The notes under the pieces are model-generated. The model saw nothing but the letters and a program-made list of their open reading frames with translations, was not told the DNA's origin and ran no database searches. Of a stretch of DNA of 64,000 nt, positions 42,520 to 58,717 are shown in pieces. A program made the position numbers and the translations under genes. This DNA is from Trueperaceae bacterium (GTDB taxonomy: Bacteria; Deinococcota; Deinococci; Deinococcales; Trueperaceae): assembly GCA_965215565.1 (NCBI GenBank), contig CBDCDZ010000004.1, positions 1,312,001-1,376,000 on the forward strand, given 5' to 3'. Within the stretch, counting starts at the first letter, position 1. Every line of letters begins with the position of its first letter.

Positions 42520-43101
42520 CTACTCGCCGAACCCATCCAGGAGCGGGAAAGGCTGCCGCCGCCCAGGGGCGCGCAAAAGCAGGTGTTCGCCCGTGCGGGT
42601 GCGCTGATAGATGAAGACGCCCTTGGGATGCTCCAAGAGGTCGCTCGGCTCCCTGGCGTCCACCATCACGCGCAGGTGGAGGGGCAGCGTGTTCTGCAGC
42701 TCGCCGAGTTCGTAGTGCTCACCCTGGGCGCGGTAGCCGAAGAAGACGTCGGTAGTGATCTCACTGTAGATGCAGGTCAGCGACTGCGCTTCCGAGGCGC
42801 GGTAGAGCGCGACGGCCTCCCAGACGGCGGCGAGCGCCGCCTCTTCGCTCACGAGTTCGCAGGCCATCTCACCCGTGTCGCCATAAAACGCCGCCGGGAA
42901 GTTGCGCGACTGCGCGTAAAAGCCTCTTTTACTCACGATGAGCCGCATCACCTTGTTGCTGTACGAAGCGCCTTTCACCGCGCTCTTCATGTAGGCGATA
43001 GCGAGCCCGTAGCGGCGCTCGTGCGCCTCGGCGAAATCTTCCCAGTCGGGGTCGATCAGGGCGGTGTCGGTGTTGACCTCAAAGCCTGTGCGCGTCAACA
43101 T
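42520..43101 (-). CDS. Conserved hypothetical protein
   Basis: 193-aa ORF with host-like codon usage, co-oriented with its neighbours. Confidence 0.7.
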   Translation of the reverse strand: MLTRTGFEVNTDTALIDPDWEDFAEAHERRYGLAIAYMKSAVKGASYSNKVMRLIVSKRGFYAQSRNFPAAFYGDTGEMACELVSEEAALAAVWEAVALYRASEAQSLTCIYSEITTDVFFGYRAQGEHYELGELQNTLPLHLRVMVDAREPSDLLEHPKGVFIYQRTRTGEHLLLRAPGRRQPFPLLDGFGE

Positions 43102-43368
43102 AAATCTCTAGAAATAGCGGGTATGAGCCGTCTCACTGAGGTTCGGAACGGGTCATCAATGCGCTCACCTGCGAGAGCTGTAAACGAGTGCGCACGTTCA
43201 GAGGTTGTACTGGCGTGATACAAGCTCGGTAAAAGTAAAATTCTCTTAGCCAAAAGCTGAGCCGACATCCTATTGACGCCCTTATAGATAAGCCTGTTCA
43301 AAATTTCGCCCGACGCCCTCTTCTCAGCGCTTCGCATGTGATGTAAATGACGTAGAGCGCTGGGCACG

Positions 43369-44163
43369 TCAGGCTCCCCCCTCTTCTGGTTTATCCCCTA
43401 CATGTAGCGCTGACACCCCGAAAGTCTGTAAGGTGTAGCGCACGTCCGCGAAGCCTGCCGCCTCCATCATCGCGGCGAGCACACTGGGTTTGGGAAACTT
43501 CAAGACCGAGTCGGGCAGATAGGTGTACGCGCTCCGCCTGCCGGATAAGAGCCCGCCCAAAATCGGCACGACTTTGAGGAAGTAGAAGCGGAAGAGCTGA
43601 CCGAACACGCCCCCTGGTGGCGGCGGGAACTCCAGGACGACTAAACGTCCACCCGGTTTAAGCACGCGGTGAAATTCGGCCAGCCCCTTGTCGTAGTCGG
43701 CGAAGTTGCGCAGTCCGTACGCAACCGTCAGGGCGTCGAAGCTCCCGTCTGGAAAGTCCAGCGCCAAGCCGTCGCCCTGCTCAAGCCTGATATCTACCCC
43801 CCGCTTGGCAGCTTTGGCGCGTCCTAGCTCGAGCATCGCCGGGACGAAATCCACCCCGACAACCTCCGCACCGGGCGCAGCCTCTTTAAGCGCCAGTGCG
43901 AGGTCCGCCGTACCCGTCGCCACGTCTAAAATGCGCCCCCCATCCGGCGCACGTTCCAGCGCAGCCTGGACCGCCTGCTTGCGCCATGCGCGGTCGACGC
44001 CCAAGCTCAGGAGGCGGTTCAAGAGGTCGTAGCGGCGCGCGATCGCGCCGAACATCTCTTTGACCTGGTGCGCCTTCTGATCTCCTGGCTGATCTTCCGG
44101 CGCGTGGTTAGGCGCAGGGCTGGGCTGAGCGGCTGGAGGGGACGAGGGCTTGGGCGAATCCAT
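43369..44163 (-). CDS. menG: Demethylmenaquinone methyltransferase (UbiE/MenG)
   Basis: MFGAIARRYDLLN, LDVATGTAD, YGLRN, RVLKPGG, YTYLPDS. Confidence 0.92.
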   Translation of the reverse strand: MDSPKPSSPPAAQPSPAPNHAPEDQPGDQKAHQVKEMFGAIARRYDLLNRLLSLGVDRAWRKQAVQAALERAPDGGRILDVATGTADLALALKEAAPGAEVVGVDFVPAMLELGRAKAAKRGVDIRLEQGDGLALDFPDGSFDALTVAYGLRNFADYDKGLAEFHRVLKPGGRLVVLEFPPPPGGVFGQLFRFYFLKVVPILGGLLSGRRSAYTYLPDSVLKFPKPSVLAAMMEAAGFADVRYTLQTFGVSALHVGDKPEEGGA

Positions 44164-44252
44164 AACGCTACGGTATCACGGAGCCTCTGGGTGTGCCCAA
44201 CCTTTGCGGACGTAAAACCTTCATCGTTTCGCGCCGCGCTATACTGCCCGCT

Positions 44253-45629
44253 ATGACCCCTTACCTCACGAACTATCTGAACGAACACCGAGAACGCTTC
44301 ACCGAAGAACTCGCCGACTTCTTGCGCATCCCGTCAGTCAGCACTGACTCGTCTTACCGGGGGGACGTGCGCCGCGCCGCGTCCTTCGTGCTCGAGAAGC
44401 TGCAACAAGCAGGCTTAGAGACGCGCCTCATCGAGACGCCGCGCCACCCCGTCGTCTACGGCTCGTACCACGTTTCCAACCGCGCGCCTACCGTGCTCAT
44501 CTACGGTCACTACGACGTGCAGCCGCCTGAGCCCCTAGAGGGGTGGGACTCACCGCCCTTCGAGCCGAGAATCGAAGCGGGCGTCATCTACGCGCGGGGC
44601 GCAACCGACGACAAGGGTCAGGTGTACGCACACGTCAAAGGGGTGGAGGCGCTGCTCGAGACCGAGGGCGTTTTAGACGTCAACGTGAAGTTCTTGATCG
44701 AGGGCGAGGAGGAGATTGGCAGCCCGAGCCTAAACGAGGTGCTCAAGGTCAACCGAGACCTCTTCGCCGCCGACGTCGTCGTTATCTCGGACGGCTCGAT
44801 GATCGCCCCGGACACGCCCACCATCACCTACGGGCTCAAAGGGCTCGCCTACATCCAAGTCGACGTGCGCGGCGCGGCGCTGGACCTACACTCCGGCGCG
44901 TTCGGCGGCGGCGTCCCGAACCCGATCAACGCGCTCGCCAAGATGATCGCGCAGCTCCACGACGAGGCGGGGCGCGTGGCGGTGCCGGGGTTTTACGACG
45001 ACGTTTTGGACGTCACAGATAGCGAGCGCGAGGCGTTCGCGAAGGTCCCCTTCGACGAGGAGGGGTTCGCCCACGAGATCGGCGTCAGCGCGACGCCGGG
45101 GGAGGCGGGCTATAGCCTCTTAGAGCGGCTTTGGGCTCGCCCGACTTTAGACGTCAACGGAATCGCGGGCGGCTTCCAGGGCGAAGGGGCCAAGACGGTC
45201 ATTGCAAACACGGCGATGGCAAAGATATCGTGCCGCCTGGTGCCTAACCAAGACCCCGCCGACATCACGAGGAAGCTGAGCGACTATCTGCAGAAAGTTA
45301 CACCCGAAGGCGTCACGGTGGACGTGACCGATTTGCACGGCGGCTACCCCGCACTCACGCCCTTGGACTCGCCCGCCGTGCAAGCTGCGAGCCGAGCCCT
45401 CCAAGAGGTCTACAGCCGAGAGCCCGTCTACGCCCGCACGGGCGGCACCATCCCCGTGGTCAGCACCTTTCAGCAGCTCTTGGGCGCAGAGGTCGTTTTA
45501 GTCGGTTTTGGCTTGGAGAATGACCGAATGCACTCGCCCAACGAGAAGTTCGATCTGGTCAACTACTACAGGGGCATCGAAACGAGCGCGGCGCTGCTGG
45601 GAGCGTTTGCGCGTAGGAACAATTCATGA
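44253..45629 (+). CDS. M20 family dipeptidase
   Basis: YGHYDVQP, RGATDDKGQ, EGEEE, DLHSG, HSPNE. Confidence 0.92.
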   Translation: MTPYLTNYLNEHRERFTEELADFLRIPSVSTDSSYRGDVRRAASFVLEKLQQAGLETRLIETPRHPVVYGSYHVSNRAPTVLIYGHYDVQPPEPLEGWDSPPFEPRIEAGVIYARGATDDKGQVYAHVKGVEALLETEGVLDVNVKFLIEGEEEIGSPSLNEVLKVNRDLFAADVVVISDGSMIAPDTPTITYGLKGLAYIQVDVRGAALDLHSGAFGGGVPNPINALAKMIAQLHDEAGRVAVPGFYDDVLDVTDSEREAFAKVPFDEEGFAHEIGVSATPGEAGYSLLERLWARPTLDVNGIAGGFQGEGAKTVIANTAMAKISCRLVPNQDPADITRKLSDYLQKVTPEGVTVDVTDLHGGYPALTPLDSPAVQAASRALQEVYSREPVYARTGGTIPVVSTFQQLLGAEVVLVGFGLENDRMHSPNEKFDLVNYYRGIETSAALLGAFARRNNS

Positions 45630-45673
45630 GTCGCCTTCTACACAGCGCTACCAGTGGGTACAGAGAACGCAAA

Positions 45674-45706
45674 ATGTGGAGACGGGTTCCAAACCCGCCT
45701 CCACAT
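45674..45706. repeat. REP-like palindrome
   Basis: ATGTGGAGACGGGTT-cca-AACCCGCCTCCACAT with GTGG/CCAC feet. Confidence 0.65.
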
Positions 45707-45825
45707 CATTCCAATGAGGTCTTGCCGATGTATCCTACTTGAAGAGGTTGCGGATCAAGTTGTGTTGACACTTGTCCCTCGAAAGATCACGCTACCGGGC
45801 GTGGTAAACCCACGTGCTCCACAGC

Positions 45826-45867
45826 CTTCTCACTCCTCACTCCCTGCTTCTTACTTCTTGCTCCTTA
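45826..45867. repeat. Heptamer tandem repeat (six units)
   Basis: cttctca ctcctca ctccctg cttctta cttcttg ctcctta; contains the reverse complement of 1921-1936. Confidence 0.7.
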
Positions 45868-45914
45868 CATAGGGAGGCGAAACACATCATGGACAGTTTG
45901 AAACACTAACTGAT

Positions 45915-46727
45915 CTAGTTAAACGCGACAGCGTCCTCGTCGTACTCATCTTCATACTCCTCGTACTCGTACGCTTCAGCGAGGGTTTGCTCGCGGGCAA
46001 CCGAGTAGACGAGGAAGCTAAAGCCCGCTTTGGCGAGCCAGTCCGCGAGCATGTAGCCAAACTGCACGCCGACTTCGGTGGAGGAGCCCCCCAGCCCTAA
46101 GAAGGGCACCATGTAGATGACCGGGAAGAAGCCCCACGAGCCCAAGAGCAAGAGCACCGAGTTGGTGACGAGGCGGCTCGCGTGTTCGCTAAGCTCGGCG
46201 AGGGCGTCGTTGAGCACGCCGTAAAGCACCCAGAGGATATAGAGGAAAGGAACCGTGCTGGCGGTGCCCCAAATCACGCGCGTCTGCGTGTCGGTAGAGA
46301 TTTCGCCGGGGTAGCCGAGAGCGATCATAGCCACCGTCGCGACGCTCAAGCGGACGCCTAGCGAGAGCGCCTTGCCGCGAGGAAAGTCGAGCACGTTGAC
46401 GAGCGAGATGAGCAGAAGCGGCACGGTGGGGAGCCAGTAGACGTAGCGGTAGAGCGCGAAAGGTAGGGTGTCCTCAGTTGGAACGTAGAGCCCCTCTTGC
46501 AGCGCGTAGACGCCGCGCCACTGCGTGAAGAGGAAGAGGTAGTGTAGCGCCGACAGCCCGACGATCGTCGCCACCATCCAGAGCGCAGGGCGGTACGCTT
46601 CGTCGATCTTGCGCCGCGACACCACGAAAAAGGCGGCGAGCGAGACCATGAGCAGCACCGTTGCGATAAAAGCAACCACCACGAAGGTGTACTGAGCGGG
46701 CGAGAGGGCACTTAAAAAATTGAGCAT
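45915..46727 (-). CDS. Xanthorhodopsin-like microbial rhodopsin with atypical YTS motif
   Basis: 7 TM helices; YRYVYWLPTVPLL, MIALGYPGE, WGTASTVPF, DWLAK (Schiff-base Lys); AAGGAG RBS. Confidence 0.92.
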   Translation of the reverse strand: MLNFLSALSPAQYTFVVVAFIATVLLMVSLAAFFVVSRRKIDEAYRPALWMVATIVGLSALHYLFLFTQWRGVYALQEGLYVPTEDTLPFALYRYVYWLPTVPLLLISLVNVLDFPRGKALSLGVRLSVATVAMIALGYPGEISTDTQTRVIWGTASTVPFLYILWVLYGVLNDALAELSEHASRLVTNSVLLLLGSWGFFPVIYMVPFLGLGGSSTEVGVQFGYMLADWLAKAGFSFLVYSVAREQTLAEAYEYEEYEDEYDEDAVAFN

Positions 46728-47224
46728 AGTTCTCCTTATGATTAGACAGCATAGGCACAACGTCAAAAGTTCTTCCGACAGCGCGAGGGCAACTCCAAGA
46801 ACTGTCAGTGACGTATGTATCGTAGGCGAGAGGCTCTTCTCAAGAGGTCAAATTTTTCATCTTTACTCGGTGTTCAGAAAGTTCGCGGGTATAGCGCTCG
46901 GGGACCTGCTCACTTCTCTAGCCAACCTCTCAAAACAGCGTGCAGAAGGGCGTGAAGCGCGTTTTGCGGTCTACGGAACAGGACTAAAACACCGTAGTTT
47001 TTCACGAGCGAGCTATGACTTTTTGCGAAAAAGAGAGAAAAGTCATAGGGGTGCGGAGCGGCTCAACAGGGTTGGCATTTGGGTCTCAAGATTTGAGAAA
47101 CACTCGGGCTAGCTTCACCGTTCCTTCAGGCGCGTTCATGAAAGGGGGTCTCGCAAACTCGAGATGGTATACTCGCTCACAGGTATTAAATACCTCACAT
47201 CGCTCAATACACCCAGGAGGATTC

Positions 47225-48304
47225 ATGCGCAAACTCATCTTCGCTTCTCTTCTTCTCGCTCTGCCGCTAGCCGCCGCACAGGACTACGTCTTCGGTATCA
47301 CCTTCGACGCGGGCGGCAAGTTCGACGGCTCCTTCAACGAGGGCACCTGGAACGGTCTTTCTGGAGCCGTCGCCGACTTGCAAAACGAGGGTCTTCTCAT
47401 CGACATCTTGGAGTTTGAAGGCACCCCCGACACCGCCGCGCAAGGTCAGCGCCAGATCGCCAGCCAGGGCGCGGAACTCATCCTCGCGCCGGGCTTTTTA
47501 CAAGCTGACGCCATCGCCGCAACTTCGCAAGAGTTTCCCGAGACGAACTTCGTCTTGATCGACGCTGTAGCGGAGAACCCCAACGTGCGAAGCGTGCTCT
47601 TCAAGGAGCATGAGGGCAGCTACTTGGTAGGCTACATCGCGGGCTCCTTGACCCAGACGGGCACGGTGGGCTTCGTCGGCGGGATGGACATTCCGCTCAT
47701 TCGCGCGTTTGACTTGGGCTACGAAGAGGGCGTCAAGGCAGCGTGCCCCGAATGCGAAGTGATTTCGAACTACGTGGGCGTCACACCAGCCGCCTGGAAC
47801 GACCCCGCCCGCGCCAAAGAACTCGCCACCACCCAGCAGGCGCAGGGCGCGGACATCATCTACGCGGCGGCGGGCGCGTCGGGCAACGGCGTCATCGACT
47901 TCGTGAACCAGACCATGTGCTTCGAAGGCGGAGACCGCGAGTCGCCGCTCGCGGCGCAGATCGAGAGCGTTGACGTGAGCGACGCCTACGCCAGCAACTG
48001 CGAGGGGCAAAACCCGCTCTTTTTCATCGGCGTGGACTCGAACCAAAACCCGCGCGGCGACACGGATGGCAATCCCGCCACCTTGAACCACGGCTTGACC
48101 AGTATGCTCAAGCGCGTGGACACGGCTGCCTATAACGCCGCGATGGACGTCGCCAACGGCGAGTTCGAAGGCGGTATGCAGACCTTGGGCTTAGCCGAGG
48201 ACGGCGTGGGTTACGCGGTGGACGAGTACAACAGCGCGCTCATCCCCGAGAGCTTAGTGACTGAGTTAGAGGCTGTCAGGCAGCAGATCATCGACGGCGA
48301 ATGA
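47225..48304 (+). CDS. BMP family (nucleoside-type) ABC substrate-binding protein
   Basis: GGKFDGSFN, FKEHEGSYLVG, GADIIYAAAG, IGVDSNQ, TSMLKRVD; AGGAGG RBS. Confidence 0.9.
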   Translation: MRKLIFASLLLALPLAAAQDYVFGITFDAGGKFDGSFNEGTWNGLSGAVADLQNEGLLIDILEFEGTPDTAAQGQRQIASQGAELILAPGFLQADAIAATSQEFPETNFVLIDAVAENPNVRSVLFKEHEGSYLVGYIAGSLTQTGTVGFVGGMDIPLIRAFDLGYEEGVKAACPECEVISNYVGVTPAAWNDPARAKELATTQQAQGADIIYAAAGASGNGVIDFVNQTMCFEGGDRESPLAAQIESVDVSDAYASNCEGQNPLFFIGVDSNQNPRGDTDGNPATLNHGLTSMLKRVDTAAYNAAMDVANGEFEGGMQTLGLAEDGVGYAVDEYNSALIPESLVTELEAVRQQIIDGE

Positions 48305-48412
48305 ACTTAGTATAATTGTAGTAACGGACTTCCGCGAGCAGTAAAGCTCGGCGTAAACACTAGCGAGCCTTCTCTTCTCCGAGCAATCGTGTTGGGGCTC
48401 TTTTTCATCCTT

Positions 48413-48616
48413 TAGCAGTTCCAAGACATACTGAGACGGATGAGCGCAGATCTCTGTCCGCAAGGACTAGCGTTACGGGCAGGCCGCCCTGCCGTTGCGG
48501 GATTTCATCTCCGAATGTGCGTGCTAGTTACGCAGTTTTCCGCAGGAAACACCGCTTTCATAGTGAGAGTGTTGCTTCGCATCGCTCCGCGCACTCAAAC
48601 CAGATGATACCTGCTA
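48413..48616. mobile_element. TAGCA...TGCTA element carrying three nested small cassettes
   Basis: Same ends as 6783-6893; extra segments at 48473-48499 (27 nt), 48528-48548 (21 nt) and 48573-48593 (21 nt). Confidence 0.85.
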
Positions 48617-48655
48617 CTTGTTGTTTCATGCTCCTTACTTCGTCCCAGCCCCACA

Positions 48656-48664
48656 TGCTACAAT
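48656..48664 (+). promoter_or_regulatory. Extended -10 promoter of rnpB
   Basis: TGCTACAAT 7 nt upstream of the P1 start. Confidence 0.65.
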
Positions 48665-48671
48665 CACCTCT

Positions 48672-49152
48672 TGCGGTGAGAGGAACCTGGTCGCGGCTTA
48701 GCTGGGCAACTGGCTTGGCTGAGGAAAGTCCGGGCTCCGCAGGGCAGGGTGCCAGGTAACGCCTGGGCGTGTAAGGCGACGGCAAGTGCAGCAGAAAGCA
48801 AGCTGCCAGGGCGGTATCATCGTCGCTCGGACGCGCTAAGTTGTTAAAGCGACTACTGAGCGCGTTGATAGTGGTGGGATGATACCCCCTGGTAACGTTG
48901 AAACGGTGCGGTAAGAGCGCACCAGTGCCTTTGGTAACAAGGGCAGCTAGGTAAACCCCACCCGGTGCAAGGTCCGATAGGGAGAAAGAGCTTGCCCGGC
49001 TCGTTAGTATCTCCGGGTTGACCGCTCGAGGCGCTTGGCGACAAGCGTCCCAGATAGATGACTAGGTAGCTCCCGGAGGTATCACTTGGAGCGTTGCTCC
49101 ATAGATGATACCTCTGGGGACGAACAGGACCCGGCTTACCACCTCTCCCGCA
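48672..49152 (+). ncRNA. rnpB: RNase P RNA, type A
   Basis: GAGGAAAGTCCGGGCT, AAGTGCAGCAGAAA, GGTAAACCCC, AGATAGATG, AACAGGACCCGGCTTA; 5' and 3' ends pair (tgcgg.gagagg / cctctcccgca). Confidence 0.97.
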
Positions 49153-49469
49153 TTATTTTTTGGCGAACGCAACCTCTGCGTCCGCCTTTCTTTTTGGAGC
49201 TGGTTGGACAAGCCCACGCATGTAGGATTTTTTACATTCGCCGTTTCTCCAAACTCGGCGCTAAGTGGGGGCGCTGTAGGAGGCGAAGTGGGTGGTGAGG
49301 GGGGAGTACGTGGGGAGACGCCAACCTCGAGCTGACTACACTCCGAGAAAGTGCGTGCTAGACTGTAAAAAGCTACCTTTCTAGGACTCGCCACCCCCTT
49401 CCCACTCGTGCTACCCGAAGCTCCCAAATGGAGCACAAGTGGGAGAAAAATCAGAAAACGACGGTGAGA

Positions 49470-49520
49470 GTGGGTCAAAGGTGGGGACTTGTGGGAATCT
49501 GTGGAAAAGTGTGATACACT
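49470..49520 (+). promoter_or_regulatory. MraZ-binding GTGG repeats overlapping the dcw promoter
   Basis: GTGG at 49470, 49481, 49491 and 49501 (10-11 nt period), then TGaTACACT at 49512-49520. Confidence 0.8.
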
Positions 49521-49610
49521 TCATCCCATAGGTTAAGTCCCTGCGTCACGCCCCTTTGCTGGTCAGACGCTGAACTTGGGCTTTTCACTTAGGTGGGAGC
49601 GTCGTGGAAG

Positions 49611-50039
49611 ATGCCGTTTGGCGAATTTCAATACTCGGTAGACGACAAAGGTCGGGTCATCGTCCCACCTTCCTTTCGCGACTTCGTTACCGACGGCATG
49701 ATCGTAACAAGAGGCATGGAAGGTTGTTTGTACGTCTTCCCGCTCACCAAATGGAACGCGATCGAGAGCGAGCTGAGCAACCTCTCCATCACCGACGCGA
49801 AATCTCGGGGCTTCGTGCGCTTTTTCTATTCGGGCGCGTCCAAAGCCAAAATCGACTCGGCGGGTCGCATCACGATTCCCGCCACGCTCCGCGCTTTCGC
49901 CTCCTTGGAGAACAACGTCCGCATCGCGGGCTTCCCGAACCGCTTAGAGATTTGGGACGAAGCGAAGTGGGAAGAGAACATCAGCGCCGTGCAGCACCAA
50001 CCCGACGCCCCGGAAGCGCTGCTGGAACTCGTCGGATGA
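49611..50039 (+). CDS. mraZ: Division/cell wall cluster transcriptional repressor
   Basis: VDDKGRV and IDSAGRI repeats; RLEIW. Confidence 0.96.
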   Translation: MPFGEFQYSVDDKGRVIVPPSFRDFVTDGMIVTRGMEGCLYVFPLTKWNAIESELSNLSITDAKSRGFVRFFYSGASKAKIDSAGRITIPATLRAFASLENNVRIAGFPNRLEIWDEAKWEENISAVQHQPDAPEALLELVG

Positions 50040-50989
50040 GTCGTCCCGAGCAGCCCCATATCCCTGTCATGTTACGCGAATGTTTAGAGGGTTTAGATAT
50101 TCGCCAGGGCCACGTCTATATCGACGGAACCTTCGGTGCGGGCGGGCACAGCCAGGCGATCTTAGACGCGGGCGGCTCGGTTTTGGGCATCGACCGCGAT
50201 GAGAAAGCCCTGGCCTTCGCAGACAAACTCGACATCCCCGAGGGACAAATTTTTACCTTCGCACAGGGAAACTTTCGCCACTTAGACGAACACGCAAAAG
50301 AGGCCGACCTCTTTCCGGCTGCCGGTATCCTGCTTGACTTAGGCGTGTCGTCCATGCAACTCGATGAGGCGGAGCGCGGCTTCGCCTTTCGGCAGGCTGG
50401 ACCGCTCGACATGAGGATGGACGCTGGAGACAACAGCGAGAGCGAGTCGGCAGCGGACGTGGTCAACACCTACACGCAAGACGAGTTAGCCGCCATCATC
50501 TTCAAATACGGCGAGGAGCGTCACAGCCGCCGCATCGCCAGGCGCATCGTCGAGGAGCGGGCGACCTCTCCGATTGAGACGACGGAGGCGTTAGCTGACG
50601 TTATTCAGCGCGCGTACCCCGGCGGTTACAGACGCGACCATCCGGCGCGGCGCACCTTTCAAGCGCTACGCATCTTTGTCAACGACGAACTCGGCGCGTT
50701 GGAGGACGCCCTTCAAGCCGCCGAGCGGACGCTTCGCGTAGGTGGGCGGCTGGTGGTGCTCTCCTATCATTCTTTAGAAGACCGCATCGTCAAGCACTTC
50801 GGCAGGGGGAGCGGCGTGCTTACACCGCTGACCAAGCGTCCATTGACGGCGAGCGACGAGGAGATAGAGGTTAATCCCCGGGCTCGCAGCGCCAAGCTCC
50901 GCGTCGCTGTTCGCAACCAAGATTCGACTGAAGACTCAAACGACTCAATTGATAAAATCCTCTCCCCTGCCCCTTCGGAGGCGTTATGA
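50036..50989 (+). CDS. rsmH: 16S rRNA m4C1402 methyltransferase
   Basis: HIPVM, DGTFGAGGH, DLGVSSMQLD, FQALRI, NPRARSAKLR. Confidence 0.97.
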   Translation: MSRPEQPHIPVMLRECLEGLDIRQGHVYIDGTFGAGGHSQAILDAGGSVLGIDRDEKALAFADKLDIPEGQIFTFAQGNFRHLDEHAKEADLFPAAGILLDLGVSSMQLDEAERGFAFRQAGPLDMRMDAGDNSESESAADVVNTYTQDELAAIIFKYGEERHSRRIARRIVEERATSPIETTEALADVIQRAYPGGYRRDHPARRTFQALRIFVNDELGALEDALQAAERTLRVGGRLVVLSYHSLEDRIVKHFGRGSGVLTPLTKRPLTASDEEIEVNPRARSAKLRVAVRNQDSTEDSNDSIDKILSPAPSEAL

Positions 50990-51306
50990 CCAGACGGAGC
51001 CAAAGCCTACTCACGCTCTACCTCGCGCTCATCCTCGCGCTCGCCGCGTTAGGCGCGCGCAACCAGGGCCGCCACCGCTACCACTTCTCCCTCTTGGAGA
51101 CCAAACGCGCGCTCCAGTACGAGTTGAGCGATTTGCGCAGCGAAGCCGCGCAGGTCAAAGGTCCTCTCGCGGTGCGCCGCTGGGCGCTCTCGCACGGCAT
51201 GATTTCGTCCCCCGAGGGAACGGAAGCCACCGAGATCGCGCCCACCTCCGGCCCTGAACCCGAAACTCCCGAAGTAGGCCTGGAGGTCCGTACGATATGG
51301 CGGTAA
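50986..51306 (+). CDS. FtsL-like cell division protein
   Basis: Single TM helix plus coiled coil, located between rsmH and the PBP gene. Confidence 0.65.
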   Translation: MTRRSQSLLTLYLALILALAALGARNQGRHRYHFSLLETKRALQYELSDLRSEAAQVKGPLAVRRWALSHGMISSPEGTEATEIAPTSGPEPETPEVGLEVRTIWR

Positions 51307-52802
51307 GAGATACGAGGGCGCGGCTCTCAGCGAAGAGCAAGTCAGTGAAGCGCGGGCCTAAAAACACACACAAGAAAAAAGTCGCCGCTTACAAGACGCC
51401 TGAGAGTGAACCTGCGCCGCAGCTCCGCCTCCACAAGCGGGCGCTCTTTCTCGTCCTCCTCGCGCTGCCCCTCCTAGCGGCGCTCGGCGGCTTCGTCCGC
51501 TTGCAAGCCAAAGCGCCTGACCTGCCCGCCGCGCTCACTGAGGAGCCGAGGCGCGGGCTCATCCAAACGAGAGACGGTACTATCCTCGCCGAAGGTGCTG
51601 TCGAGCACCGCCGCTACCCGGAGGGGCGGCTCGCCGCGCATGTGGTTGGTTTTAGCGGCGCGGTGCAGCCCGACGGGAGGTTCGGTCTAGAGGGGCTCGA
51701 GTACGCCCTAGATAGGCGCTTGCAAGAGGGCGAAGACGTGACGCTGACCCTAGACCCGAGCCTCCAAGCCATCGCCCAAGCCGAGCTGCGCAAAGCTGCG
51801 CAGACCTTTGAGGCGGAGAACGGCGCGGTGGTGATGCTCGAGGCGAACACGGGGCGCGTCTTAGCTGCCGCCTCCTACCCCGAATTCGACCCCAAGAGAC
51901 AAGGACAGGTTGAAGAGCGCAGCATCATCAGCAACCGCGCATTTTTGCAGCAAGTCGAGCCCGGCTCCACTATGAAGCCTTTTGTGGTGGCTGCGCTCAT
52001 GGAAGCGGGGCGGCTCTCGCCAGACGAAACGCTGGAGGTCGGGCCTTACATGCGCGTCGGCACCCAGGACTTCCGCGACGTATCTTCGCACGACCCGGTC
52101 TTGAGCATCCCCGACATCTTACGAGTCTCAAGTAACGTCGGCATGATCAAGCTGGGCGAGCGCTTCTCGTCCGAAGAACTGTCCTCCTGGATGTATCATT
52201 TCGGCTTTGGGCGCGACGTCGGCTTGAACGCCGCATATACCCGCGACGGACGTATCAATCCCTGGCAGAACTGGGTGCCCCAAGACCACGCCTCCGCGAC
52301 CATCGGGCAGAGCGTCTCGACGACGGCGCTCCAACTCGCCGCCGCCTACAGCATCTTCGCGAACGACGGGGTTTACGTGCCGCCGCAACTTCTAGAAGAT
52401 GAGGTCACCTTCGAAGAGGTCAGAGGCGAACCCGTCCGCACAGGCGCGGTGCGGGTGCTCTCCTCGAGTACAGCGCAAAGTGTCAAGGACATGCTCGTCT
52501 ACACGGTGGAGAATAGCGGGCTCAGCGTCGCCAAGATTCCCGGCGTCAAAGTTGCGGGCAAGTCGGGGACGGCGGACGTCTTTGACAACGAAAAGGGCGA
52601 ATATATCAAAGCGGGCACGCTCCTCTTTGCAGGGATGTTTCCGGCGGACGCTCCCCGCGTCACGGCGGTGGTGTACCTGCAAAAACCCAAGGAAGAAAGC
52701 TTGAGCACCTACGTCGCCGCGCCCGTCTTTCGGGCGATCGGCAGCGAGACCGTCGCCCTCTGGGGGCTCCCGCCCAAACCCGGTCAGGTCGCGGGGCAAT
52801 AG
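51297..52802 (+). CDS. ftsI: Class B penicillin-binding protein
   Basis: EPGSTMK (SxxK), SSN, KSGT motifs. Confidence 0.9.
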   Translation: MAVRDTRARLSAKSKSVKRGPKNTHKKKVAAYKTPESEPAPQLRLHKRALFLVLLALPLLAALGGFVRLQAKAPDLPAALTEEPRRGLIQTRDGTILAEGAVEHRRYPEGRLAAHVVGFSGAVQPDGRFGLEGLEYALDRRLQEGEDVTLTLDPSLQAIAQAELRKAAQTFEAENGAVVMLEANTGRVLAAASYPEFDPKRQGQVEERSIISNRAFLQQVEPGSTMKPFVVAALMEAGRLSPDETLEVGPYMRVGTQDFRDVSSHDPVLSIPDILRVSSNVGMIKLGERFSSEELSSWMYHFGFGRDVGLNAAYTRDGRINPWQNWVPQDHASATIGQSVSTTALQLAAAYSIFANDGVYVPPQLLEDEVTFEEVRGEPVRTGAVRVLSSSTAQSVKDMLVYTVENSGLSVAKIPGVKVAGKSGTADVFDNEKGEYIKAGTLLFAGMFPADAPRVTAVVYLQKPKEESLSTYVAAPVFRAIGSETVALWGLPPKPGQVAGQ

Positions 52803-52871
52803 AGGTATAGTGTCCTCTATGAGCCAGATGGTGACGCAGCATACGAAAGACGAGCGGGGGAACGCTGCGCT

Positions 52872-54200
52872 GTGACGCCATTGTCACCTCAATTTGTCGC
52901 TGCTACGGCGGGCGTGTCGCTCGAGTCTAGGTCCCTACAAGACGCGAGCGGCGTGAGCTTTCACTCGGCGCGTGTTCATCCCGGCGACGCCTTTTTCGCG
53001 CTCCCCGGAGCGGCGGGACACGGACTCGCGTACGCGGACCAAGCGTTAGCTGCAGGCGCAGCTTTCATCGTTTCGGACAGGCCGCATCCGCGCGGGCTTC
53101 GGGTTGAGAACCCAGCGCAAGTTCTTCTCGACTTGGGCAAACATGCGAGAGGCCAACTCAGAGGTCCTGTCGTTGGCGTGACCGGTTCAGCAGGTAAAAC
53201 GAGCACCAAAGCGATGCTCGCAGCGGCGCTGGGCGCGGCGGCGAGTCCGGGCAACTTCAACACGCCGCTCGCGCTGGCGCAGGTCCTCATAGGCGCTTGG
53301 TTGCAGAGAAAAACGTCGGAAAACGAGAGGTTGGTCCTCGAGCTAGGCATCGACTTCGTCGGCGAGATGGACCAGCTCGTCGCGTTGGCTAAACCCACCC
53401 ACGCCGTTCTCACCCTGATTGCGGAGAGCCACCTGAGCGCCCTGGGCAACGTCGAGACCGTCGCGAGAGAAAAGCTCAAGCTCGTGGACGCGGCCGAACA
53501 CGCCTTCGTCAGCGAGCAAGCTGCACCCTTTACGAACGAGGATCAGCGTGAGAAAAGCACCGTCTACGGGCTCGGCGCAGAGGCAGACTTTTCAGGTGTT
53601 GTGACCGATGTATCGCCAATAGGTCAACGGCTGCAAGTCGGCGGCGTCACGTTTACGCTTCCCTACTTGGGCGACGCGATGGCGCGAAACGCGGTGGCAG
53701 CGGTGGGCGTGGCGCGGCATTTCGGGCTCGGTTTGGACGAAGTCGCTAAGAGGTTGAGCGAGGTGAGGCTCGAGCCCGGACGCTTAGAGGTCAAACGGAC
53801 CGGCAACCTCACCCTTATCGATGACTCGTATAACAGCAACCCCGCGTCGGCGGCGGTGGCTCTGGGCGTTCTGCGCCAATTCCCGAAACCTCACACCGCT
53901 GTTTTGGGCGACATGTTAGAACTCGGCGTGGTGTCAGAAGTGCGTCACCGTGACCTAGGTAAGCAGACGTTGGATTTGGACTACCTCTTTGCCGTGGGCG
54001 ACGAAGCGCGGTTCGTTGCGGCAGAAAATCCGCGCGCAGTTCACCTCGCTTCGGAGGACCTCTTAGACGTTATAGATGCGCTCCCCACTCACGGAACGGT
54101 GCTCGTCAAGGGCTCGAGGGGAACGCGGCTCGAGCGGCTCGTCCAGGCGCTACTCGAAGCGAACGCTAAAATCTCCCAACAAGAGGTGAGCGCGCCGTGA
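52872..54200 (+). CDS. murF: UDP-MurNAc-tripeptide D-Ala-D-Ala ligase
   Basis: GVTGSAGKTSTK, NFNT, DDSYNSNP, LGDMLELG, VKGSRG. Confidence 0.95.
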   Translation: MTPLSPQFVAATAGVSLESRSLQDASGVSFHSARVHPGDAFFALPGAAGHGLAYADQALAAGAAFIVSDRPHPRGLRVENPAQVLLDLGKHARGQLRGPVVGVTGSAGKTSTKAMLAAALGAAASPGNFNTPLALAQVLIGAWLQRKTSENERLVLELGIDFVGEMDQLVALAKPTHAVLTLIAESHLSALGNVETVAREKLKLVDAAEHAFVSEQAAPFTNEDQREKSTVYGLGAEADFSGVVTDVSPIGQRLQVGGVTFTLPYLGDAMARNAVAAVGVARHFGLGLDEVAKRLSEVRLEPGRLEVKRTGNLTLIDDSYNSNPASAAVALGVLRQFPKPHTAVLGDMLELGVVSEVRHRDLGKQTLDLDYLFAVGDEARFVAAENPRAVHLASEDLLDVIDALPTHGTVLVKGSRGTRLERLVQALLEANAKISQQEVSAP

Positions 54201-55120
54201 TCGTTCTCTGGTCCGCCCTCTCATCGCTCTTGCTCGTGGGCGTCTTTATTCAGCTTGCGGGGCGCTACGGCTGGGGCAAAGGGATACGGCGCGACGGACC
54301 CCCAAGCCACCTCAAAAAGGAGGGCACGCCGACGATGGGCGGCGCAGCCTTTCTGCTCGCCGCGCTCTTCACGTGGCTCCTCGCCGGTGAGCCGAGCTTC
54401 GACGGGCTCGCCGTCGTCATGCTGACCTTCGCCGCCGCCCTCTTGGGGCTCTACGATGACCTCTTGGCGCTCCGCCGCAAACGCCGCGCCCTCATCCATG
54501 AACAGGGTGGTGAGGACGACACAACGGGGCTCTTGGCGCGTTACCGCTTGCTCGTCCAGGGCGCGCTCGCCTTCGCCTTTTCTCTCTACGCCGTGCGGGG
54601 CGGCTACACGCTCTTCGATATTCAAGTGTTTGACCTCTTGGCCTTCACCTTTATTATCATGGGCACCATCAACGCCGTGAACTTCAGCGACGGGCTGGAC
54701 GGGCTCGCGGGCGGCATGACGGCGCTTATCTTGCTGCCGTTTAGCGGGGTCAGCTTTATCGCGGCTTTGATCGGTTCACTTTTAGGGTTTCTCTGGTATA
54801 ACGGCTCGCCTGCGCGAGTTTTCATGGGCGGCGTCGGCTCGGAGGGGCTCGGCGCGGCGGTGGCGGGCGTCGCCATCTTGTCCGGTTGGGTGTGGTGGCT
54901 GCCGCTCATCGCCCTCATCCCTGTGCTAGAGGTCTTATCCGTTATCATCCAAGTGACGTACTTTCGGGCGACGGGCGGCAAGAGGTTTTTCAAGATGAGC
55001 CCGCTGCACCATCACTTCGAACTCTCCGGGTGGTCGGAGACGCAAGTGGTCACGCGCTTTTGGCTCGTGACGGCGGTGTGCGTGGCGGTGGCGTGGAGCG
55101 CGCAAAGAGGTCTTTCATGA
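54197..55120 (+). CDS. mraY: Phospho-MurNAc-pentapeptide transferase
   Basis: KEGTPTMGG, YDD, NFSDGLDG, PLHHHFE. Confidence 0.97.
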   Translation: MIVLWSALSSLLLVGVFIQLAGRYGWGKGIRRDGPPSHLKKEGTPTMGGAAFLLAALFTWLLAGEPSFDGLAVVMLTFAAALLGLYDDLLALRRKRRALIHEQGGEDDTTGLLARYRLLVQGALAFAFSLYAVRGGYTLFDIQVFDLLAFTFIIMGTINAVNFSDGLDGLAGGMTALILLPFSGVSFIAALIGSLLGFLWYNGSPARVFMGGVGSEGLGAAVAGVAILSGWVWWLPLIALIPVLEVLSVIIQVTYFRATGGKRFFKMSPLHHHFELSGWSETQVVTRFWLVTAVCVAVAWSAQRGLS

Positions 55121-56499
55121 GAGCGCTTGTGTACGGTTTAGGGCGCAGCGGCGTCGCTGTAGGTAAGCTCTTGCGCTCGCAAGGTCATGAGGTCGTCTAC
55201 TTCGATGAAAACGTTGAGGCCTCGCCCGAATTGGACGCGCTCGGCTGCGAACGGGCGAACACACCTCTTGAGCACGCGAACATAGATGTCTGTATCGCGG
55301 CTCCGGGCGTCCCCTATGACCATCCCGACTTAGAGGCGTTGAGGGACCGCGGCGTTGACACCATCGGCGAAGTCGAGTGGGTGTATAGAACGGTAGACGC
55401 AGAAATCATCGGCATCACGGGTACGGCGGGTAAAGGCACCGTCACGCGCTGGACGAGCGACGTGCTGCGCTCAGCGGGGCTGGACGCGCCCGCCGGGGGC
55501 AACATCGACCCGGCGCTCGCAGAGGTAGCGGGGGCAGGCAAGACGCTCGTCGTGGAGATGTCGTCGTTTATGCTCGAGCGCACGCCCACCCTTAAACCTC
55601 TTATCGCTGCCGCCCTCAATCTAGATATAGACCACTTAGACCGCCACGGCAGCGTGGCAGCCTATCACGCAGCTAAGCGCAATCTTATTCGTAACGTGGA
55701 CGAAAGCTGTACCTTTATCTACAACGCCGACGACGCAACCTTGCGCGACTGGGCAACCGAGGCGCAGCAGAAGAACGCTGAGGTTCGCTTCTTTAGCACA
55801 ACCCAACCTGCGAACGCTTATCTGAACGACGATTCTATCTTTTTAGACGGAGACCCGCTTATGCCGCTCAGTGATTTACAGATTCAAGGCGCGCACCATC
55901 GCGCCAACGCGCTCGCCGTGACCCTCATCTGCCAGGCGAAGGGCTTGTCACGAGAGGAGATTCGAAGGGGTTTAGCCGAGTTCACGGGCGTCCCCGGACC
56001 CTACAGCTTGGTTAAGACCATAGGTAAGGTTCGCTTCATCGAGGATTCGATTGCGACACGCTCGCTCTCGGTTCGGGCTGCGCTGGAAGCCACACCTGCG
56101 CCTATCGTGTGGCTCGCAGGTGGACAGGATAAGGGCGCGGACTTCACCGCTTTAGAACCGCTTATCCGAGCTAAGGTGGCACTTTTTATCGGCATCGGCG
56201 TATCGGGTGAGCGGTTCGCTGAGGCTGTTTCGCCCTGGACGCAGACGGTTGTGGTTGAGGTTGAGGATGGTCAGGCAGCCATGCACCAAGCGGCGCAGCA
56301 AGCCGCAAAGTTTTTACAGGATTTCCCGCAAGGCGGTACGGTTTTACTCGCGCCTCTCGCCGCGTCGTTTGATCAATTTAAGGATTACAAGGAGAGGGCT
56401 CGAGCCTTTAGGGACGCGGTTCACGCTTTGGAAAACTCGTTGGAATTCCAAACCACGCCACAGGAAGAACGAGGGGAGGTCTCGTGGACCCGCTCTTAG
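55117..56499 (+). CDS. murD: UDP-MurNAc-L-Ala D-glutamate ligase
   Basis: GLGRSG, GITGTAGKG, EMSSF, DHLDRH, SFDQF. Confidence 0.95.
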   Translation: MRALVYGLGRSGVAVGKLLRSQGHEVVYFDENVEASPELDALGCERANTPLEHANIDVCIAAPGVPYDHPDLEALRDRGVDTIGEVEWVYRTVDAEIIGITGTAGKGTVTRWTSDVLRSAGLDAPAGGNIDPALAEVAGAGKTLVVEMSSFMLERTPTLKPLIAAALNLDIDHLDRHGSVAAYHAAKRNLIRNVDESCTFIYNADDATLRDWATEAQQKNAEVRFFSTTQPANAYLNDDSIFLDGDPLMPLSDLQIQGAHHRANALAVTLICQAKGLSREEIRRGLAEFTGVPGPYSLVKTIGKVRFIEDSIATRSLSVRAALEATPAPIVWLAGGQDKGADFTALEPLIRAKVALFIGIGVSGERFAEAVSPWTQTVVVEVEDGQAAMHQAAQQAAKFLQDFPQGGTVLLAPLAASFDQFKDYKERARAFRDAVHALENSLEFQTTPQEERGEVSWTRS

Positions 56500-57560
56500 T
56501 CTTTACGCAGCTCATCTTGGGCACGTTGGGCGTGCTGGGCGTCGCCACGAGCGCGCCCGAGCTGTGGCCCGCCCACCTCTTGCGCGTGCTCGCAGGGCTC
56601 GCCCTCACCTTTTTAGCCTCGCGCGTCTCGCCGCAGCGCGTGGTGCGCCTCAGCCCTTACGCCTACGTGGGCGTGCTCGTTCTCTTGGCGGCGGTCCTCA
56701 TCGTCGGCATCTCGCCCGAAGGCAGCGACGCAAAGCGCTGGCTCGACTTGGGCGTGTTCACACTGCAACCTTCCGAGCTGATGAAGGTGACCGTCATCGC
56801 CTACCTGACGGCTTTTTTTTACAACCACCTGGGTGACTGGCAGATTTGGCGGCCCATGTTCGTCATCGGTTTGGCGGCGGGGCTCATCGTGGCGGAGCCG
56901 GACGTGAGCACGGCGGGCTTTATCTTTCTCTTGGCGTTCGCCATCATGTTAGCGGCGGGCACGACTGTCGTGCGGCTGCTGAGTATTACGACAGCGGCGG
57001 CTATTGTCGCCGTCCTTATCGCAGGACCGTATCTCAGCGAATATACCTATATCGGTGACCGCATCAGGGGCTTTGAAGACCTCTGGGGAGCGCAAGAACA
57101 GGCGCAGACCGAAAGCTATCAGGCGGTGCAGGCGCAACGCACCCTCGTTCGCGCCGGGCTTTTCGGCGTCGGACCGGGCGAGATCATCCGCGTACCGGAG
57201 GCGGACACGGACATGATCGCGATTTCGGTGGCGCACGCGCTCGGGCTTTTAGGTGTAGCGACGCTCTTCGCGCTCTACATCTTTATTGCGTGGCGGGGGC
57301 TGAGCATCGCCTCGAGCCTCGCCGGACCCGGCTCGCTCTTAGCGGCGGGGGCGACGGCCTACATCTGCGGTCAAGCGGCGCTGAATTTACTTGTCGCTTC
57401 AGGTCTCGTGCCCGTAACAGGGATTCCCTTGCCGTTTGTTTCTTACGGGCAAAACAGTCTCTTCTCGGTGGCGATTGCGATGGGGTTCATTCACAGCGCC
57501 TACCGCATTTCTCAGAATCCTGAACTGGCAGCACAAAACGCTAAGGAGAAAACCGCGTGA
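56484..57560 (+). CDS. ftsW: SEDS peptidoglycan polymerase
   Basis: KRWL, LQPSE, EPD, PEADTD, TGIPLPFVSYG. Confidence 0.93.
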   Translation: MDPLLVFTQLILGTLGVLGVATSAPELWPAHLLRVLAGLALTFLASRVSPQRVVRLSPYAYVGVLVLLAAVLIVGISPEGSDAKRWLDLGVFTLQPSELMKVTVIAYLTAFFYNHLGDWQIWRPMFVIGLAAGLIVAEPDVSTAGFIFLLAFAIMLAAGTTVVRLLSITTAAAIVAVLIAGPYLSEYTYIGDRIRGFEDLWGAQEQAQTESYQAVQAQRTLVRAGLFGVGPGEIIRVPEADTDMIAISVAHALGLLGVATLFALYIFIAWRGLSIASSLAGPGSLLAAGATAYICGQAALNLLVASGLVPVTGIPLPFVSYGQNSLFSVAIAMGFIHSAYRISQNPELAAQNAKEKTA

Positions 57561-58717
57561 CTCGCGTTCTCCTCGCGACAGGCGGCACGGGTGGGCACAT
57601 CTACCCGGCGCTCGCCACCGCAGAGGAACTCGCGGCGCGCGGCTACGAAGTTGCCTTCATCGGACAGCGCGGCGGCATGGAGGCGCGGCTCGTGCCGGAA
57701 ACAGGCTTCGACTTTCACGGCGTCCGGGCAGGCAAGTGGCACCGGGGCAGCCCGGACCCGCGTCAGGCGGTTCAGGCGGGGCTGGGGCTATGGGACGCGG
57801 TCAAAGTCGTGCGCGAACTCAAACCGCTCATCGTCGTCGGCTTCGGCGGCTTCGCGAGTTTTCCGGGGTTGGCAGCCGCCACAGCGCTGCGCGTCCCGGT
57901 TGCGCTGCACGAGCAAAACGCGCTTCCCGGCAAGGTCACGCGCTGGTTTGCTCACCGCGCCGCCTTTGTCGCTACCGCCAACGAAGAGGTCGCGGCACAT
58001 TTACCCCTTCACCGGAGCAAACTCGTTCAGGTTGGCGTACCCGTGCGGGAGGCGCGCGTCGATAAACGCGGCGCGCGGCGTCAGCTCGGCTTCGCAGAAA
58101 CGGACGTGCTCACGCTGGTGATGGGCGGAAGTCAGGGGTCTGCCTTTCTCAACGAACACGCGCCGAAAGCGTTCGCGGGCCTCTCTCGGTCCTTACAAGG
58201 ACACTCTCTCAGCGTCTTACACAGCAGCGGCGAGCGGCATCTGAAAGGGGTCAAGGCCCTAGCCGAAGGGGTACCTAACTACCGCGTGGACAGCTTTGTA
58301 GACGCCGTGGTAGCCTGGTCTGCGGCGGATTTAGCGATCACCAGAGCGGGCAACGGCACGCTTGCGGAGGCGGCCTTTCACGGGGTACCTCTCGTGATGG
58401 TCCCGCTCGCCTCTTCGGCCGAAAACCATCAACTGCATAACGCGAGGGCGGTAGCAGCCGCTGGCGCAGGGCGAGTCGTGGAAGAGCGTGACGCAGGGCA
58501 GCTCGCGGCGGCGTGGCAGGCTCTCCTAGTTCCTGCGCCGCGCCGAGCTGCGGCGAAGGCGGCGCGGCAGCGTTCGCCCGAAGGTGCGGCGGCGCGGCTC
58601 GCGCGGCTTATCGACGAATCCGTGAACGCCTCAACGAACACTCGGTCACCAGACAAAGATTTTCACGCGGCGCACGCCTCTCAGCGGGGTGCAAAGCGTG
58701 TTCGGGAGCAACGATGA
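57557..58717 (+). CDS. murG: Lipid II GlcNAc transferase
   Basis: GGTGGHIYP, HEQN, GGSQG, RAG, HQ..N. Confidence 0.96.
   Translation: MTRVLLATGGTGGHIYPALATAEELAARGYEVAFIGQRGGMEARLVPETGFDFHGVRAGKWHRGSPDPRQAVQAGLGLWDAVKVVRELKPLIVVGFGGFASFPGLAAATALRVPVALHEQNALPGKVTRWFAHRAAFVATANEEVAAHLPLHRSKLVQVGVPVREARVDKRGARRQLGFAETDVLTLVMGGSQGSAFLNEHAPKAFAGLSRSLQGHSLSVLHSSGERHLKGVKALAEGVPNYRVDSFVDAVVAWSAADLAITRAGNGTLAEAAFHGVPLVMVPLASSAENHQLHNARAVAAAGAGRVVEERDAGQLAAAWQALLVPAPRRAAAKAARQRSPEGAAARLARLIDESVNASTNTRSPDKDFHAAHASQRGAKRVREQR

Follow-up and report, generated by a model that had tools for sequence, protein, structure and literature searches.

A rhodopsin gene on the reverse strand of the DNA analysed here (the window: 64,000 nucleotides of a Trueperaceae bacterium, C4:1312001-1376000 of its 4.49-Mb, 99.99% complete genome, G000) encodes a member of the xanthorhodopsin (XR) family, P0001, in which the helix-C motif D-T-E of the proton pumps of that family has become Y-T-S. 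The assignment to the XR family holds by sequence, by fold and by phylogeny. The acceptor and donor carboxylates are both replaced across the clade to which the protein belongs and, because both are gone, outward pumping by the usual relay is excluded on established knowledge; a preliminary description of the sequence was right to set this protein apart from standard outward proton pumps. We favour, tentatively and at somewhat less than an even chance, the reading that the YTS rhodopsin acts as a non-pumping photosensor.

The Pfam family Bac_rhodopsin (PF01036) matches P0001 over residues 18-245 (4e-31, 108.7 bits against a cut-off of 24.6). An AlphaFold2 model computed with 23 clade sequences as input has seven helices (residues 10-40, 43-73, 88-112, 117-143, 147-176, 181-206 and 215-260; predicted local distance difference test score (pLDDT) 83.8, predicted template modelling (TM) score 0.81), helix C being interrupted at residue 97 (88-96 and 98-112), and its top Foldseek match is psXR (9wfa; TM 0.86/0.95, root-mean-square deviation 1.5 Å). 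The XR-type pumps psXR (9wfa, E = 5.2e-60), Gloeobacter rhodopsin (6nwd, 4.5e-56), Salinibacter XR (3ddl, 9.7e-53), Thermus TR (5azd, 4.4e-49) and Kin4B8 (7ytb, 8.7e-47) are 39-45% identical to P0001, with TM scores of 0.84-0.86 and deviations of 1.5-2.1 Å. They share with it His62, Arg94, Trp98, Thr101, the GYPGE segment, Trp153-Gly154, Trp198, Pro202, Asp229 and Lys233 (P0001 numbering), but they carry D-T-E where P0001 has Y-T-S, and P0001 is further set apart by twelve other clade-specific switches, by a long stem in the tree and by a true DTE paralogue in the same genome. In the psXR paper the DTE motif is tied to outward pumping (PMC12779958).

In HMMER alignments to psXR, Gloeobacter rhodopsin and Salinibacter XR the query segment 'yryvywlptvplllislv' lies opposite 'yryvdwlltvplllvetv', so that the acceptor Asp becomes Tyr97, Thr101 is kept and the donor Glu becomes Ser108, as the preliminary description had proposed. 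The same description had His62, Gly154, Asp229 and Lys233 retained, and we located each at its codon; the altered FALYRY and WGFFP segments, the latter in place of WGFYP, and the acidic, Tyr-rich tail (AYEYEEYEDEYDEDAVAFN) that it pointed out are likewise all present. Lys233 is invariant in the alignments and Asp229 is conserved in at least 90% of sequences. The pair of His and Asp on helices B and C that forms the XR counterion is broken in P0001, which keeps His62 but has Tyr in place of the Asp.

To define which positions changed with the motif, 31 clade sequences (near-identical cluster members included) were compared with 155 DTE XR-like relatives, a switch being a position at which one residue reaches at least 85% in the clade and at most 10% outside it. 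Fourteen positions qualify, twelve of them besides Tyr97 and Ser108. Position 97 is Asp in 155 of 155 DTE relatives and Tyr in 94% of the clade sequences; position 108 is Glu in 155 of 155 and Ser in 97%. Pro100 replaces a Leu found in 149 of the 155 relatives (96%), Phe65 an Arg found in 154 of them, and Phe201, at 100% in the clade, a Tyr found in all 155; Trp230, invariant in the clade, stands where DTE relatives have Val or Ile, and Gln247 where all 155 have Lys. Leu92 is an insertion, FALYRY being one residue longer at this point than FNDAYRY, and the remaining switches are Ala24, Ile55, Ser59, Thr131, Phe238 and Arg121, the last at a column where the window protein itself has Leu121. The charges removed in this way are both relay carboxylates, the helix-B Arg, the Asn-Asp before helix C and the Lys at the cytoplasmic end of helix G. 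Unchanged in the clade are Arg94, Thr101, His62, Asp229 and Lys233, together with the retinal cage of Trp98, Trp153, Trp198 and Pro202. The helix-F Tyr lost at 201, which we take to be Tyr185 in bacteriorhodopsin numbering and thus the hydrogen-bond partner of Asp212, disappears together with the gain of a Tyr at 97, as though the Tyr paired with the helix-G Asp had been moved from one helix to another. By regional entropy, helix D and the tail appear relatively more conserved in the clade than in the DTE relatives, a comparison between sets of unequal depth and redundancy.

Two departures within the clade bear on function. The cluster P0008/P0272 (contigs of 359 and 12 kb), passed over in the preliminary description, has Leu97 and Thr229 (LTS, ATWVGK), hence no protein counterion. 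The Gly that follows Trp153 is the equivalent of the fenestration Gly at SrXR position 156, for which the psXR paper gives a role in binding a carotenoid antenna (PMC12779958); of the 23 clade rows in alignment A1, 18 have it, four have Phe and one has Leu. The possible carotenoid antenna that had been suggested for P0001 may thus stand for this protein, which has Gly154, but not as a trait of the whole clade.

The extent of the clade was determined in two sequence collections. A word-indexed search of 5.8 billion clusters gave 2670 relatives at E <= 1e-20, the listing covering the best 120, and an exhaustive HMMER search of 1.84 billion representatives returned 664 at E <= 0.001. Among 269 proteins collected, the helix-C motif is DTE in 178, YTS in 23, YTA in one and LTS in one; 33 gave no match (mostly fragments), donor-less motifs that keep the Asp comprise DTA (nine), DTQ (six), DTG (one) and DTS (one), and other motifs are scattered. 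When the 8000 candidates sharing the most words were scored with a profile of 23 clade members, 25 clusters (56 sequences) scored 361-488 bits and the next protein, a DTE, 299 bits; 23 of these clusters are YTS, one is YTA and one LTS. A tree of 80 rows (P0001-P0005, those of P0008-P0070 with at least 240 aa, and 12 more distant representatives, but not P0006 and P0007, which are truncated; IQ-TREE quick mode, LG+G4) sets all 23 clade rows apart from the others by a branch of length 0.58 with a Shimodaira-Hasegawa-like approximate likelihood ratio (SH-aLRT) of 100, within the radiation of DTE XR-like proteins.

Taxonomically the clade is narrow. Among 364 Deinococcota species genomes it occurs only in G000 and in two sister genomes, G001 and G002, the next-best matches inspected (L077-L079) being DTE, and a pattern scan of 185,579 species genomes returned only the two sister metagenome-assembled genomes. 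A second subclade (b), 45-51% identical to P0001 and known only from metagenomes, has a helix C beginning FLQALYRY... and a Gln-rich tail ending in SGD or AGD, unlike the P0001-type tail, which is conserved in five full-length close relatives (pLDDT is below 50 for its residues 259-270). The cytochrome P450 encoded beside the subclade-b gene shares 74-75% identity with genes of three further Trueperaceae-family genomes, which, on the basis of this single gene, suggests that subclade b also comes from that family. The clade is rare (25 clusters) and apparently confined to Trueperaceae-like bacteria.

The gene is intact and under purifying selection. Tyr97 is encoded by TAC in G000 and G001, by TAT in G002 and by TAC in the metagenome contig L037 (loci L003, L004, L005 and L037), and Ser108 by TCG in all four. 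Nei-Gojobori dN/dS ratios among the three YTS orthologues are 0.107, 0.102 and 0.130 at dS of 0.60-0.85; the DTE paralogue gives 0.027 between G000 and G001, so that selection on the YTS gene is the weaker of the two. An independent contig, from the Logan assembly of sequencing run X1, spans 46324-46446 with no differences. Confirmation of codon 46437-46439 in reads, which had been called for, was therefore obtained in part: none of the 40 X1 differences listed falls on this codon, and 123 further differences lie beyond that listing. The search for homologues with the same motif and the dN/dS test, also called for, gave the 25-cluster clade and ratios of 0.10-0.13.

The bacterium has an ordinary pump as well. 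A second rhodopsin gene of G000 (C4:1878709-1879386, reverse strand; locus L001 1420-2280) encodes a canonical DTE XR-like protein (YRYIDWLLTVPLLLTE, WGVYP, ADVLAK) that is 46% identical to the YTS protein, and lies between a thiolase-like and a MoaA-like open reading frame (ORF). Elsewhere the genome encodes a Blh-type beta-carotene dioxygenase (2.7e-52) and a phytoene synthase (1e-70), and no RPE65-type oxygenase was found in it; neither the paralogue nor Blh figured in the preliminary description. With the DTE pump gene and the Blh gene in the same genome, retinal and an ordinary pump are both available. G001 and G002 each carry a YTS copy and a DTE copy. The DTE copy of G002 (L022, G002:C2:1072255-1072948) matches in two pieces, residues 23-190 and then 187-251 with one TGA, which may reflect a frameshift or an assembly error; the YTS copy of that genome is intact.

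In the mechanism that we would propose, a retinal-binding paralogue of the XR-type proton pumps has been rebuilt so that the usual outward pumping is lost. Its protonated Schiff base would probably face a counterion complex of Tyr97 and Asp229, with His62 in addition. By analogy with the Proteo-SRs, the pigment would be red-shifted and the Schiff base would give no proton to helix C. The protein could then act as a photosensor or regulator with a slow photocycle in a cell that also has its ordinary DTE pump, its signal being passed, via the cytoplasmic face or the conserved tail, to a partner that would not be encoded adjacently.

We rank this reading first mainly because of the Tyr precedent in the Proteo-SRs, which the preliminary description had not brought up and which are the sole characterised rhodopsins with a Tyr/Asp counterion that we found in the literature. 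According to Saliminasab et al. 2023 (PMC10519204), these proteins have a Y(T/C)M motif with Tyr in place of the helix-C carboxylate counterion, have their absorption near 580 nm, show no deprotonation of the Schiff base, transport no protons and bind Htr-like transducers encoded adjacently; they are nearest to the ESR/DTK pumps and 24% identical to XR. The Proteo-SRs and the YTS clade have in common the Tyr counterion, the loss of the donor carboxylate and the retention of the helix-G Asp and Lys. They differ in that the Proteo-SR donor position is Met and that of P0001 is Ser108, the residue before the Lys is Asn there and Ala (A232) here, the His of PR/XR-type proteins is absent or shifted there and retained here as His62, and the FPLLxG and LRE motifs of the Proteo-SRs are lacking in P0001 ('VPLLLIS'). 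Their genes, moreover, adjoin those for Htr, CheA, CheW and CheY, and no such neighbour occurs in the YTS contexts read.

Several observations weigh against a sensory role. Since the features that define the Proteo-SRs (His, Met, Asn, FPLLxG/LRE) are not those of P0001, and their lineage is probably another (24% identity to XR, against the 39-45% of P0001 to XR-type pumps), the Tyr counterion of the YTS clade may be convergent with theirs, a comparison based on their published description. The YTS gene stands alone, as pump genes do, and the fenestration Gly kept in those 18 of 23 rows is typical of antenna-bearing pumps; both fit a transporter. P0008, lacking Tyr97 as well as Asp229, appears to fit an anion counterion better than a Tyr/Asp complex. 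To our knowledge every characterised sensory rhodopsin has its transducer next door, and no transducer-type gene adjoins the YTS gene in any of four contexts (the window, G001, G002 and the metagenome contigs L037/L039). In the window the gene is flanked by those for an M20 peptidase and a Bmp-family binding protein, in line with the earlier statement that neither a retinal-synthesis nor a transducer gene is adjacent. Anabaena sensory rhodopsin keeps its helix-C Asp and has, like P0001, Ser at the donor position, and an ASRT-family gene is present in G000; the co-encoding of rhodopsin and ASRT seen in Anabaena is not. The G000 ASRT-family gene (PF07100; C4:144343-144693, forward strand; L061 1486-1863; 125 aa, E about 1.6e-56 to 7e-56) lies 1.2 Mb from the YTS gene. 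The family occurs in seven of 61 related genomes, five of which are without the clade, was not found in the clade-bearing G002, and is patchily distributed, tracking no rhodopsin type. Methyl-accepting chemotaxis protein genes, found in 25 of the 61 genomes, are not clade-specific either, and no fused signalling form occurs among the longer proteins at E <= 1e-30, a search that gives weak evidence.

Some further observations were made in the course of this search. The ASRT-family gene is directly downstream of a cytochrome P450 gene. Next to the subclade-b gene lies an 85-aa ORF that belongs to no Pfam family and is unmatched in G000. For the subclade-b P450, G000 has a homologue of only 40% identity (C4:1918437-1919621), which adjoins neither rhodopsin gene. 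No relative of the rhodopsin was found in viral contigs.

The alternatives are led by a light-driven inward pump for chloride, nitrate or sulfate, which we consider unlikely. An anion lying between the Schiff base, the Tyr97 hydroxyl, Thr101 and Arg94 would act as a mobile counterion, as in halorhodopsins and NTQ rhodopsins. All anion pumps known to us replace the carboxylate at the Asp85 position and keep the helix-G Asp and the Arg, a rule that speaks for this alternative, as do the invariance of Arg94 and Thr101 in the clade, the P0008/P0272 cluster without any protein counterion, and a monocistronic gene co-resident with a proton pump, often the case for pump genes. The sequencing runs that contain parts of the gene are labelled marine or biofilm metagenome, at small shares, and are also in keeping with it. 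The NTQ chloride pumps ClR and NM-R3 (5g28, 5b2n) resemble P0001 in the replaced helix-C carboxylate, in the Arg, Thr and helix-G Asp that are kept, and in fold (TM 0.85-0.88); they are, however, only 24-25% identical to it (E about 1e-16), and neither their N-T-Q motif nor the T-S-A/D of the halorhodopsin type is matched by Y-T-S. Tyr is, moreover, far bulkier than the Thr, Ser or Asn of known anion pumps, the lost charges have given way to hydrophobic rather than polar, anion-friendly residues, and we know of no characterised anion pump in the XR family. NTQ rhodopsins and halorhodopsins are both named as chloride pumps in the Proteo-SR paper (PMC10519204).

Inward proton pumping, convergent with the schizorhodopsins, strikes us as improbable. 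The aromatic residue at the Asp85 position would block outward transfer, Asp229 would be the sole counterion and the proton would leave to the cytoplasm. In the schizorhodopsin preprint, these proteins are inward proton pumps with an FSE motif, in which Phe takes the counterion position, an Asp of helix G is the counterion and the motif Glu is a conserved cytoplasmic acceptor (bioRxiv 10.1101/2025.10.15.682728). On that description Y-T-S with Asp229 resembles them in the aromatic residue at the Asp85 position, the hydroxyl residue next in the motif and the single helix-G Asp, but the family is unrelated and the acceptor Glu corresponds to Ser108 in P0001. None of the 14 clade switches adds a carboxylate, Lys247 has become Gln, and no chain named schizorhodopsin is among the 60 best solved-structure matches. 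Slightly less probable again would be a weak or slow outward pump in which Asp229 on helix G accepts the proton and a carboxylic donor is lacking. Proteorhodopsin relatives without a donor can still pump, helix-C motifs that keep the Asp but lack the donor are numerous among the 269 relatives, and Asp229, Arg94, His62 and Thr101 are kept. Position 97 is, however, Asp in all 155 XR-like relatives and in most of the other motifs, charges conserved in the pumps are lost (F65, FALYRY), the genome already has a canonical DTE pump, and the Proteo-SRs with their Tyr/Asp counterion do not pump, according to PMC10519204. In favour of a sequencing error, or of a duplicate that is decaying and without function, one base separates TAC from GAC, and dN/dS is about four times that of the DTE paralogue. 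Against this stand Tyr codons of both kinds in four independent assemblies, 25 clusters with full-length open frames, the retinal Lys in every clade row of the alignments, a dN/dS far below 1 and the identical X1 contig over the codon region. The preliminary description had argued from concerted changes against a lone error, and positions 97, 100, 108, 201, 230, 247 and 65 do switch together in a clade with an SH-aLRT of 100. An artefact or relic is effectively excluded by the variety of codons, the clade branch, the score gap and the X1 contig.

Table 1. Positions of the YTS rhodopsin gene, its motif residues and other features of the window
Feature	Position	Strand	Basis or remark
YTS rhodopsin coding sequence, protein P0001	45915..46727	(-)	ORF list and translation; 270 aa plus stop; start codon ATG at 46727, stop codon at 45917-45915
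Shine-Dalgarno AAGGAG	46732..46737	(-)	4 nt upstream of ATG 46727
Promoter-like site TTGACG-17-AATCAT, weak	46738..46766	(-)	consensus scan
Rhodopsin-upstream block	46800-46865	(-)	alignment A3, columns ~425-495
His62 (CAC), helix B; XR/PR-type partner of helix-C counterion, retained	46542..46544	(-)	invariant in alignments A1 and A2
Tyr97 (TAC), at Schiff-base counterion/proton-acceptor Asp position	46437..46439	(-)	HMMER alignments to psXR, Gloeobacter rhodopsin and XR
Pro100, clade-specific; P-T-V-P in helix C	46428..46430	(-)	clade compared with DTE relatives
Thr101 (ACC), second motif residue, kept	46425..46427	(-)	invariant in alignments
Ser108 (TCG), at cytoplasmic proton-donor Glu position	46404..46406	(-)	HMMER alignment and clade comparison
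Gly154, after Trp153; equivalent of fenestration Gly	46266..46268	(-)	alignment; Trp153-Gly154 codons span 46271-46266
Phe201 in WGFFP, replacing Tyr invariant in DTE relatives	46125..46127	(-)	clade comparison
Helix G D229-W230-L-A-K233: second counterion Asp, clade-specific Trp, retinal Lys	46029..46043	(-)	alignments; D229 = GAC at 46043-46041, K233 = AAA at 46031-46029
Cytoplasmic C-terminal tail, residues 250-270, Tyr/Glu/Asp-rich	45918..45980	(-)	translation
M20 peptidase gene	44193-45629		convergent with rhodopsin gene
Na+/H+ antiporter-family protein, 675 aa	36897-38924	(-)	PF03553, 5e-60; 7 kb from rhodopsin gene
RNase P RNA, bacterial class A	48674-49154	(+)	255.5 bits, E 4.7e-83, full length
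138-aa ORF	49062-49478	(-)	no Pfam family; overlaps RNase P RNA by ~90 bases (49062-49154)
dcw cell-division/cell-wall cluster	49604-58717	(+)	MraW methylase, penicillin-binding protein transpeptidase, Mur ligases, MraY-type glycosyltransferase, FtsW/RodA

The rhodopsin gene is monocistronic, convergent with the M20 peptidase gene and divergent from the gene for a Bmp/PnrA-type binding protein (Table 1; the Pfam scan of window ORFs extends to 57560). The pairing with Bmp is found in three of three genus genomes and the M20 neighbour only in G000 and G001, the G002 gene being flanked by Bmp and a permease-like ORF. The subclade-b genes on L037 and L039 have a PEGA-domain protein on one side and a convergent cytochrome P450 on the other (L037 2959-4194 and L039 1615-2850, both on the reverse strand), with a TPR protein also among the neighbours. 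P450s are carotenoid hydroxylases in Thermus and Deinococcus, and a link of the subclade-b enzyme to an antenna carotenoid is conceivable.

The Shine-Dalgarno region (AAGGAGAACT) is the same in G000 as in G001, and G002 has a similar one. The promoter-like site close to it is not significant in the consensus scan (one site against 0.6 expected in shuffles), and a block near this site (TTTTGACGTT) is common to G000 and G001. Farther upstream, the block ATGAAAAATTTGACC ... TACGATACA ... GTCACTGACAGTTC is kept in all three genus genomes while its flanks diverge, and on this conservation could be a promoter or operator; TTGACC and TACGAT within it are 21 nt apart, and a standard sigma-70 site is shorter. 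An Rfam scan of 43000-50000 found RNase P RNA alone, with no riboswitch in the 500-bp gap upstream of the rhodopsin gene; a terminator scan at the gene found none, and no RNA run is among the listed sequencing runs that contain parts of the gene.

The YTS clade thus appears, from its sequences, to be an uncharacterised offshoot of the XR family with a Tyr counterion. No paper on a YTS-motif rhodopsin was found in the literature covered, which excludes supplements and subscription journals; among the titles and abstract openings listed for Trueperaceae rhodopsins none concerns the clade, and for xanthorhodopsins of the Deinococcota only the psXR paper came up. No solved or named relative with the motif is among the matches listed, and NCBIfam has no family for either G000 rhodopsin. 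Helix-C motifs are the main handle for predicting rhodopsin function, and the characterised NDQ, NTQ, FSE and Y(T/C)M motifs each revealed a new function or mechanism. Here a small, clean clade maintained by selection lies within a pump family whose structures are well known, solved relatives being 39-45% identical, and it may represent a second independent occurrence of a Proteo-SR-like Tyr/Asp counterion. This makes it possible to test how a Tyr counterion affects colour, Schiff-base pKa and proton transfer, whether the dozen co-switched residues are needed for conversion of a pump to a sensor or to an anion pump, and whether a fenestration that binds an antenna has a use other than energy harvesting; the carboxylate-free LTS variant offers a natural further step of comparison, and a red-shifted XR scaffold that is non-pumping or anion-conducting could be of use in optogenetics. 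A fuller version of the photosensor reading, which we regard as doubtful, is that the clade would be the first non-transporting sensory lineage of the XR family and the first photosensory rhodopsin of the Deinococcota, with a Tyr97/Asp229/His62 counterion, carotenoid docking by way of the fenestration and signalling through the conserved cytoplasmic tail to a partner of a new kind encoded elsewhere. If that were true, these bacteria would possess an antenna-assisted light sensor that arose independently of the haloarchaeal sensory rhodopsins, of Anabaena sensory rhodopsin and of the Proteo-SRs.

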